Shown here: positions 40,831-41,423 of the stretch, in pieces
Numbering within the stretch: the first letter of the stretch is position 1
How the letters are laid out: each line of letters begins with the position of its first letter
DNA from: Eledone cirrhosa
Lineage: Eukaryota
Reading direction: 5' to 3'
Assembly: GCA_964016885.1 (NCBI GenBank)
Contig: OZ024745.1
Coordinates: 72,726,001 to 72,790,000, forward strand
DNA length: 64,000 nt
The notes under the pieces: model-generated
What the model was told of the DNA's origin: nothing
Seen by the model: the letters and a program-made list of their open reading frames with translations, nothing else
Database searches by the model: none
Position numbers and translations under genes: made by a program

Positions 40831-41423
40831 CTAGCTTGGGCTAGATGACGTTGGATATTCGACGGCTTGGATTGTGGTCTCGGGGGGGATTCCTTTTGGT
40901 TCGTCCTCTGGGGCGTGTGGCCTCTGCGCAGAGGAGATATTCTTTGTGCTAAAATCTGGAGATTCCTTAACCTACGGACAGATTTATTCAGTTGTTGCAG
41001 ACATAGATTGAGCTCAACGTTTAGATATAAATTTAAATTTAAAATGTGGTATATTTAGTTTGATTTATATTTATATGAGAACTAGCCGATAAATCTTTTG
41101 ATTCCTAAATCTTTGATTCCCTCTTTTTACTCTTTTTATTGTTTATTTTATTTTATTTATTTTTATTTTTATTTTTATCTAAACATTCCTCATGAAAAAT
41201 TGGGCTGCCCTAAAGGCCGATGCTCCAAATTTTTTGAATTAACCTTACACTAGATAAACTTCTGTGTTAAATATGGGAACATATGTAGACATTATTGGAC
41301 ATCATAATCTTTTTGCGATATTCTTTGCTAGATGTGATTTGATAGATGATTTTTGGCTTTGTCTTGTAGTGAACTTGGCAATATGTTGTCAATTGACTTT
41401 GAAGGGTTGTTCTTTGTGGTTCA

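Follow-up and report, generated by a model that had tools for sequence, protein, structure and literature searches.

A Penelope-like element in Eledone cirrhosa carrying an apparent genomic record of A-to-I hyper-editing

At one locus of the Eledone cirrhosa genome, a truncated copy of a Penelope-like element (PLE) reads G at many positions at which its relatives read A. Does this copy record the deamination of adenosines in an RNA that was subsequently reverse transcribed and inherited, as the initial annotation had proposed, or do the changes reflect age, polymerase error, events on DNA or faulty assembly? The locus lies in a stretch of 64,000 nucleotides (G000:C5:72726001-72790000; the window) of a 3.0-Gb assembly. 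The following features of the window are referred to below.

40835..42623, forward strand: 5'-truncated PLE copy of the young subfamily 'B' (the focal copy), with GIY-YIG tail, long AT-rich 3' region, hammerhead motif and tail-less end; about 42 A>G changes
40838..41048, forward strand: zone of dense A>G change that spans the end of the open reading frame (27 changes), with A in 27 or 28 of 28 relatives at each site
41202..41395, forward strand: sparser A>G clusters, 10 changes by column comparison with young relatives
42506..42590, forward strand: hammerhead-ribozyme-like motif recognized by eye (core CTGATGA at ~42523, GAAA at ~42561), with no match in Rfam and an MFE fold other than that of the ribozyme
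40491..40830, forward strand: 3' fragment of a LINE adjoining the insertion, called RTE-like following the initial annotation; unedited, 0 A>G at 103 A
40829..40834, reverse strand: 4-6 nt at the 5' junction that repeat, in inverted form, the bases with which the element starts; present at the focal locus and its duplicate only
23636..26810, forward strand: comparison copy of the initial annotation, an unedited member of sister subfamily 'A' whose inverted 5' arm lies at ~22860-23635
12154..20214, no strand assigned: fold-back element from a second PLE family, with its GIY-YIG tail at 15712-16047 (37% identity), unedited against 29 relatives

The element and its A-to-G changes

The family encodes a single open reading frame with a reverse transcriptase followed by a GIY-YIG endonuclease, the arrangement of PLEs with a C-terminal endonuclease. 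The frames comprise 569 aa (open at the 5' end) and 749 aa and contain, by eye, YRDD and NIVY/YVG motifs; Atlas neighbours at 0.94-0.98 bear RVT_1, GIY-YIG and HTH_animal, with Mollusca the commonest phylum in several, and Pfam and PDB sequence searches with the PLE protein gave zero matches. In the full-length copy L106 the 3' end repeats the 5' start (pseudo-LTR), inverted 5'-truncated arms occur, just one of the two arms bears the tail in each of the 6 two-armed copies displayed and in 3 more, and copies are flanked by (TA)n. Terminal repeat, hammerhead motif, one-sided tail and (TA)n are described as hallmarks of PLEs in passages of PMC8557442, PMC4209133 and PMC3846280. The family resembles the PLEs with C-terminal GIY-YIG treated in parts of PMC8557442 and PMC11167929 in its RT-endonuclease frame, terminal repeat, one-sided tail, inverted arm and (TA)n, and by eye in a putative hammerhead motif, but differs in the length of the tail, which is ~75-80 nt here against 30-40 nt, and in a 3' region of ~1.7 kb. 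The protein lacks CCHH, has CDLC before the conserved E and CKH after the N, and the targets are (TA)n, in agreement with the Hydra clade as delineated in the relevant section of PMC8557442 (no CCHH; CxxC and CxH beside conserved E and N; (TA)n targets). Only one cysteine is located between NIVY and YVG, unlike in the clades Penelope/Poseidon, Neptune and Nematis. Judged by these motifs, the family probably belongs to the Hydra clade.

The initial annotation had put the differences between the focal copy and a related copy in the window at about 26 A>G, 1 G>A and about 8 of other kinds, and a global alignment of 40833-41050 with 25098-25365 (duplication skipped, 218 columns) gave exactly 26, 1 and 8. 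The comparison copy is indeed a relative but not the parent, as it belongs to a sister subfamily (best matches L002-L030). The reference used here for the focal copy consists of its 28 best-matching young copies (L033-L060), at columns with at least 80% agreement; in this young subfamily, 24 of the 28 copies have no more than 3 of each transition type over ~1550 columns. Against this parental subfamily the bias does not dissolve but becomes sharper: 37 of the 41 focal differences from the column majority in 40835-41395 are A>G (binomial p ~2e-18 against a generous 25% expectation), with 27 in 40838-41048, none in 41049-41201, which includes a (TTTTTA)n tract, and 10 in 41202-41395. At 41048 the change converts the stop codon to one for Trp. 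Further A>G changes at 41959, 42578 and 42580-42582 lie beyond the interval 40831..41420 initially delimited, which does hold A>G but is only part of an element extending over 40835-42623; the last four fall in the probable stem I 3' strand of the hammerhead-like motif. Over 1646 columns the focal copy shows 38 A>G against 2 G>A, 1 T>C and 1 C>T relative to its nearest unedited relatives.

As to direction, A is present at every focal A>G site in 25-28 of the reference copies aligned. Because these copies were picked by similarity to the G-rich focal copy itself and read A despite this selection, A is the ancestral state, as the initial annotation had held. The change also stops at the element's edge, as indicated by the complete absence of A>G from the adjoining RTE-like fragment.

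That the Gs reside in genomic DNA is supported by raw reads, in which they had been suggested to be sought: over 40886-41077 they recur in a contig of 194 nt from run X1 (depth 7.9), which departs from the window copy by 1 letter and 2 gaps. X1 and X2 come from a single sample, whose library type is unrecorded and which may be the assembled individual, so that X1 is not independent with respect to the individual; runs X4 and X5 have zero cover over 40842-40937. A second assembled segment, 216 kb away, contains the same insertion with the same Gs except for a small indel at 40958, in a flank with 29 substitutions in 3187 columns (~0.9%). Near 40958-40964 the X1 contig agrees with the form of this duplicate, and the G at 40958 together with one missing C in the window copy may be an error or a haplotype difference. 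Contigs from records 8 and 16 of runs X1 and X2, which agree with the edited stretch at 90% and depart from it by 10 letters, are probably further edited copies.

The duplicate is part of a larger repeat, as window positions 26766-51178 recur downstream at G000:C5:72974400-72993000 with ~0.9% substitution divergence; there, sequence like window 3224-4603 is joined straight to 26766, with ~22 kb missing, and the repeat is either a segmental duplication or a retained second haplotype. Comparison of the window with itself by masked BLAST (microsatellites swamp an unmasked run) also displayed SINE-like repeats of ~300 bp at 5356-5661, 27079-27382, 28606-28861 and 50008-50318, and longer diverged repeat pairs, 46766-47754 with 56357-57374 and 57392-58053 with 59097-59752.

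Recurrence, strand and neighbour context

The focal copy does not stand alone. The initial annotation had proposed counting other A>G-clustered copies, and at least 11 more, with differing patterns and on contigs C1, C2, C3, C4, C6 and C7, bring the number of distinct hyper-A>G PLE copies in the genome to at least 12. A 32-letter pattern with A or G allowed at each adenosine gave 1467 matches, of which 8 (the focal copy, its duplicate and 6 others) remained when two neighbouring adenosines were both forced to G; with a second sense pattern there were 6 matches, 4 of them previously known, and with a third, in the RT region, there was 1. Every one of these matches (8, 6 and 1) was hyper-A>G when inspected. 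The BLAST matches supplied one further copy (L033/L107), and another (L094/L108) was encountered in the first 30 loci taken without selection. Two mirror T>C patterns, the first covering the same 32 bases as the base pattern, had 0 and 0 matches, with denominators unmeasured.

Relative to their nearest unedited relatives the other copies have 99, 199, 54, 152, 101, 104, 22 and 165 A>G changes, and 123, 137 and 187 in the remaining three. The G>A counts of the edited copies, 0-7 against 22-199 A>G, are not those of APOBEC-type G>A editing, and T>C amounts to 0-7 in nine copies and to 13-16 in three with more distant relatives. The edited copies span several subfamilies (non-A/G distance 0.8-7%) and have their A>G sites only partly in common; site sharing at ~1.1-2-fold over random is put down to context and ascertainment. 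Age is excluded by the comparison of L142 with its young sister L037, in which 187 of the 194 differences over 2627 columns are A>G. In 85 control copies, 276 A>G, 230 G>A, 489 T>C and 387 C>T were counted in 206,029 columns, without an A>G excess. A T>C excess in the controls L074, L085 and L090 was set aside, its sites being common to all three as members of a diverged subfamily, and a burst of G>A/C>T in L161 was recognized as an alignment artefact, the copy end being aligned to (AT)n.

How frequent are such copies? Recapture of 3 of the 6 second-pattern matches by the first pattern suggests ~15 heavily edited copies, or ~1%, while 1 heavily and 1 lightly edited copy were encountered in 30 unselected ones; about 1-3% of the copies of the PLE family are affected. 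L144 and L145, with 8-9 dispersed A>G, were left out of the count. L143 (G000:C1:35.91 Mb) has 16 A>G, of which 10 cluster at consensus 1605-1677, and as it is lightly edited, a tail of weaker cases exists. With the two-adenosine test, at one site per family, 7 of 1466 PLE but 2 of 5390 RTE-like sequences carry the change (odds ratio 13, p 5e-4), and both RTE-like matches are true local A>G patches. These patches, in L111 and L112 (G000:C1:194632488 and C22:2971958), lie at ~1470-1610 and were found with a pattern inside the patch; their limits are nearly equal, at consensus 1166-1307 and 1166-1305, which suggests one fixed duplex near the 3' end of the LINE.

The edited adenosines have a characteristic neighbourhood. 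In the edited zones of 9 copies pooled, the edited fraction by 5' neighbour is 412/1243 for T, 370/1214 for A, 74/473 for C and 47/461 for G (33, 31, 16 and 10%; p 8e-28), and by 3' neighbour 155/385 for G, 380/1213 for A, 260/1260 for T and 108/533 for C (40, 31, 21 and 20%), with AAG and TAG the best and GAT the worst triplets. L142 alone likewise shows disfavour for a 5' G (24, 29, 11 and 5% for T, A, C and G; G 5/102, p 1e-6). The preference for 5' T or A and the sparing of GA adenosines put forward initially for the focal copy is thus borne out in the pooled copies and in L142, but in the dense zone of the focal copy alone it is a weak trend in a small sample (T 11/24, A 9/28, C 3/9, G 4/14), and adenosines after G are still edited at 10% in the pool. 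ADARs are general in animals, and 5' G depletion in all animals tested as well as a 3' A/G preference in invertebrates are reported in the parts of PMC5625713 concerned with editing motifs. The depletion of 5' G combined with the preference for 3' G or A matches this report, and the context is of ADAR type.

Template strand and alternative origins of the changes

The strand that carried the changes can be read from copies with an inverted 5' arm. In element sense, arm and main copy have 22 Gs in common in L104, 41 in L102, 67 in L108, 4 in L105 and 1 in L101; discordant arm sites are few and lie only past the start of the tail, in sequence read as flanking microsatellite. Arm and sense copy mismatch at 0 of 1144 columns in L108, 3 of 711 in L102 and 2 of 762 in L104, none of them A/G, and at 5 of 1035 columns, two of them A/G, in the lightly edited L107. 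The tail sits on the short arm and is missing from the long one in L101, L104 and L105, with the reverse in L102, L107 and L108; as the short arm has extra sequence, it is not a snap-back copy of the long arm's cDNA. A PLE protein cuts and extends both target strands from two RNA start sites bracketing the tail, according to the mechanistic sections of PMC11167929. With ~99% of copies free of editing, any second RNA would almost certainly have lacked the edits, and both arms most likely derive from one sense RNA molecule, for which L104 is the strongest single case. We infer that the changes were present in the template before either priming. Strictly, the evidence for a sense template covers the edited copies, and gene conversion after insertion could as the remaining alternative also have made the arms identical.

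The explanation that we consider highly probable is ADAR editing of the PLE RNA before reverse transcription and insertion. Recurrence, strand asymmetry and ADAR-type context all support the retrotransposition of an edited PLE transcript, which the initial annotation had proposed, and they point to an ADAR as the putative enzyme and to RNA as the molecule on which it would have acted. A sense PLE transcript would have been partly double-stranded in a germ-line cell, ADAR would have deaminated a large share of the adenosines in the duplex part, and the PLE reverse transcriptase would have copied inosine as G; the cDNA would then have been inserted in AT-rich microsatellite DNA beside the RTE fragment and inherited. 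Head-to-head arms would be primed separately on one sense RNA molecule.

Misincorporation of C opposite A by the reverse transcriptase as it made the first strand from unedited RNA, for example with unbalanced dNTP pools, would produce the same change on the same strand, and pool-driven hypermutation by retroviral reverse transcriptase is known. It would also do without a dsRNA partner, and none was found by junction search or RNA folding. Nevertheless, independent errors would not coincide in two separately primed arms with identical changes, and misincorporation accounts poorly for the sharp limits in one cDNA (0/260 before consensus 1051, then ~30-60%) and for the depletion of 5' G with 3' G preferred while other error types are not raised; we regard it as very improbable. 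Deamination of adenine on DNA at integration, whether due to a tRNA-deaminase-like enzyme or to ADAR acting on a DNA:RNA hybrid, finds a basis in the editing of the DNA strand of hybrids by ADARs in vitro as mentioned in PMC12925331. However, the DNA strand of a reverse transcription hybrid is antisense, so that T>C would be seen in sense, whereas the mirror searches gave 0, and a change on the second strand would not recur identically in an arm on the opposite genomic strand. Identical edits in both arms therefore argue against this origin, to which we attach equally little probability, as well as against polymerase error.

An ADAR would still be the agent if a resident copy had been rewritten after insertion by cDNA of its own edited transcript, through RNA-templated repair or gene conversion. 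The patchy limits inside the element and the ability of inverted-repeat arms to homogenise would agree with such rewriting. On the other hand, the adjoining RTE fragment is unedited, and the own hairpin of a copy would give T>C (in PLE sense) in the arm, of which 2, 9, 1 and 0 are seen against a local reference, not arm-specific. Moreover, lightly edited two-armed copies diverge between their arms (25/1565 and 8/1575 columns), and the 5' junction of L142 (3880-3970), with short re-copied pieces of edited template having the same Gs and a tiny inverted tail fragment, is a sign of template jumping by the reverse transcriptase at insertion. Rewriting in place is thus no likelier than the two preceding alternatives. 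A sequencing, assembly or RNA-polishing artefact is hardly credible at all, as the Gs are present in a raw-read contig, in two assembled segments ~0.9% apart and mirrored exactly in inverted arms, even though the window copy has small indel differences from reads and duplicate and clustered mismatch artefacts, albeit G-to-A, are described in a passage of PMC2873906.

Source of the duplex, consequences and relation to known systems

With ADAR editing of the RNA as the preferred reading, a double-stranded partner of the transcript is to be sought. The initial annotation had taken the fold-back PLEs of the window as examples of how such dsRNA can arise, but they do not provide it here: the arm at ~22913-23635 covers only the distal 3' region, which is nearly unedited in the focal copy, and the fold-back at 12154-20214 belongs to the other family and is itself unedited against its relatives. 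The latter was ruled out as an edited copy, A>G making up just 1 of its 8 differences over 1756 columns. A genome search with the focal junction, for a source locus folded back at that point, matched only the focal locus and its duplicate. Intramolecular RNA folding was likewise rejected as the source, as no helix exceeds 13 bp and the fold does not predict the edited sites. Head-to-head pairs that could give long dsRNA across the edited region are common, numbering at least 10 among the first 100 matches listed.

The limits of editing differ between copies. L142 and L108 are edited over nearly their whole length, and the focal copy and L107 barely in the distal 1.2 kb. Dense editing starts at consensus 1073, 1183, 1131, 1107 and 1107 in L106, L107, L108, L140 and L141, that is in 5 of 6 long copies from three subfamilies, with 0/260 upstream of the start in three long copies; three truncated edited copies begin at consensus 1141, 1155 and 1184. 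Consensus 1070-1180 lies immediately upstream of the endonuclease linker. L142, in which editing sets in at the very start of the copy (consensus 627), refutes a universal 5' boundary, and a subfamily template switch at the boundary was rejected on the same nearest neighbours on both sides in L106, L107 and L108 being uninformative. The (TTTTTA)n tracts are spared in matched context (TAT 0/38 and 6/250 vs 48/149). As these tracts are spared and the start at 1073-1183 is common, a perfect hairpin is unlikely to be the sole source of the duplex. One candidate partner is a cis hairpin read through from a head-to-head locus, which fits L142 and L108; the other would be an antisense partner, imperfectly matched and ending at a fixed point, which fits the shared start and spared variable tracts of the focal copy and most others. 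Edited copies are also more often short: 6 of 7 from the first G-forced pattern are truncated after consensus 1090 vs 3 of ~29 unselected copies (by eye, Fisher p ~3e-4); stalling of the reverse transcriptase on edited or paired template, or cutting of the RNA, may cause this truncation.

A>G changes create no stop codons. Of the 9 copies spanning the respective sites, 5 have a changed tyrosine in the YIG motif and 5 a read-through stop codon; the YIG tyrosine is catalytic according to PMC11167929 in its part on the endonuclease. Edited copies are, to judge from their codons, likely crippled, and editing would in this way inactivate PLEs. L106 (4838-7085, reverse strand) is full-length and retains an open 749-codon frame despite ~104 A>G, with its endonuclease recoded and the stop read through. 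Progeny of an edited copy was not seen in the focal family among the copies compared. In the second PLE family, an internal repeat unit of the 3' region at 16330-16520 shows, relative to the paralog unit upstream of it, 15 A>G against 1 G>A in 168 columns, with 6 T>C, 2 C>T and 14 transversions besides, and relative to a downstream unit 13 A>G against 1 G>A; most of its Gs are common to the 12 relatives displayed. Tentatively, and with a low-complexity alignment, this G-rich unit is possibly an old editing burst in the founder of that family.

The closest known parallel is found in ADAR-hypermutated avian proviruses, which as far as described in the sections concerned share clustered A>G at up to about half of the adenosines, a link to inverted repeats and transfer to DNA by reverse transcription (PMC8586724; PMC12925331). 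These are however isolated cases among retroviruses, while the PLE copies are non-viral, recurrent (12), in the germ line and from several subfamilies. The APOBEC fossils of vertebrate LTR elements (parts of PMC4866542) are equally strand-biased deaminase hypermutations of single copies in reference genomes read against a subfamily consensus, but consist of G>A through C-to-U on cDNA in LTR elements, in contrast to A>G, most likely on RNA, in a PLE; the same text finds APOBEC-type DNA editing absent from 19 invertebrates and other mismatch types 'very rare'. ADAR hyper-editing of repeat dsRNA, as treated in PMC5625713 and PMC9068888, involves the same change and neighbour preference, as differences between RNA and DNA, whereas the marks in the PLE copies lie in DNA. 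Lizard Penelope is named there as the one other LINE-like repeat with massive editing, and octopus as standing out both for its hyper-editing and for the potential of its genome to form dsRNA, each exceptionally high (PMC5625713; PMC9068888), with transposon defence mentioned as an unexplored function of cephalopod editing (PMC9068888). In human cells, the restriction of L1 by ADAR1 is described as independent of editing, with no L1 RNA editing found (PMC5224506), the passage on Alu in PMC4982230 treats a role of ADAR in retrotransposon suppression by mutation or in the shaping of subfamilies as undetermined, and a 2025 commentary, in the part concerned, holds the effect of editing on transposons to be still open (PMC12458077). 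Searches of full-text literature that takes in few subscription papers yielded no account of PLE or non-LTR copies edited by ADAR and then fixed in a genome.

For the biology of PLEs, the choice between sense and antisense template and the origin of head-to-head arms are left open in PMC3846280, and on these questions the edits point to sense RNA and to a single molecule for both arms; they supplement the in vitro mechanism of PAc as outlined in PMC11167929 with evidence from single molecules on the strand used as template and on how the arms form. In a wider reading, which we put forward tentatively and hold to be slightly less probable than even, ADAR may be a recurring germ-line mutagen of retrotransposons in this lineage, the RNA-side counterpart of APOBEC fossils, with marks serving as barcodes for sense RNA and for one molecule priming both ends, and an edited copy may sometimes found a family, as 16330-16520 may record. 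The edited copies are heritable, countable products of a route from RNA editing to germ-line DNA and provide a DNA-only record of germ-line ADAR preference, and such copies can skew repeat dating and mimic or mask RNA-editing calls.
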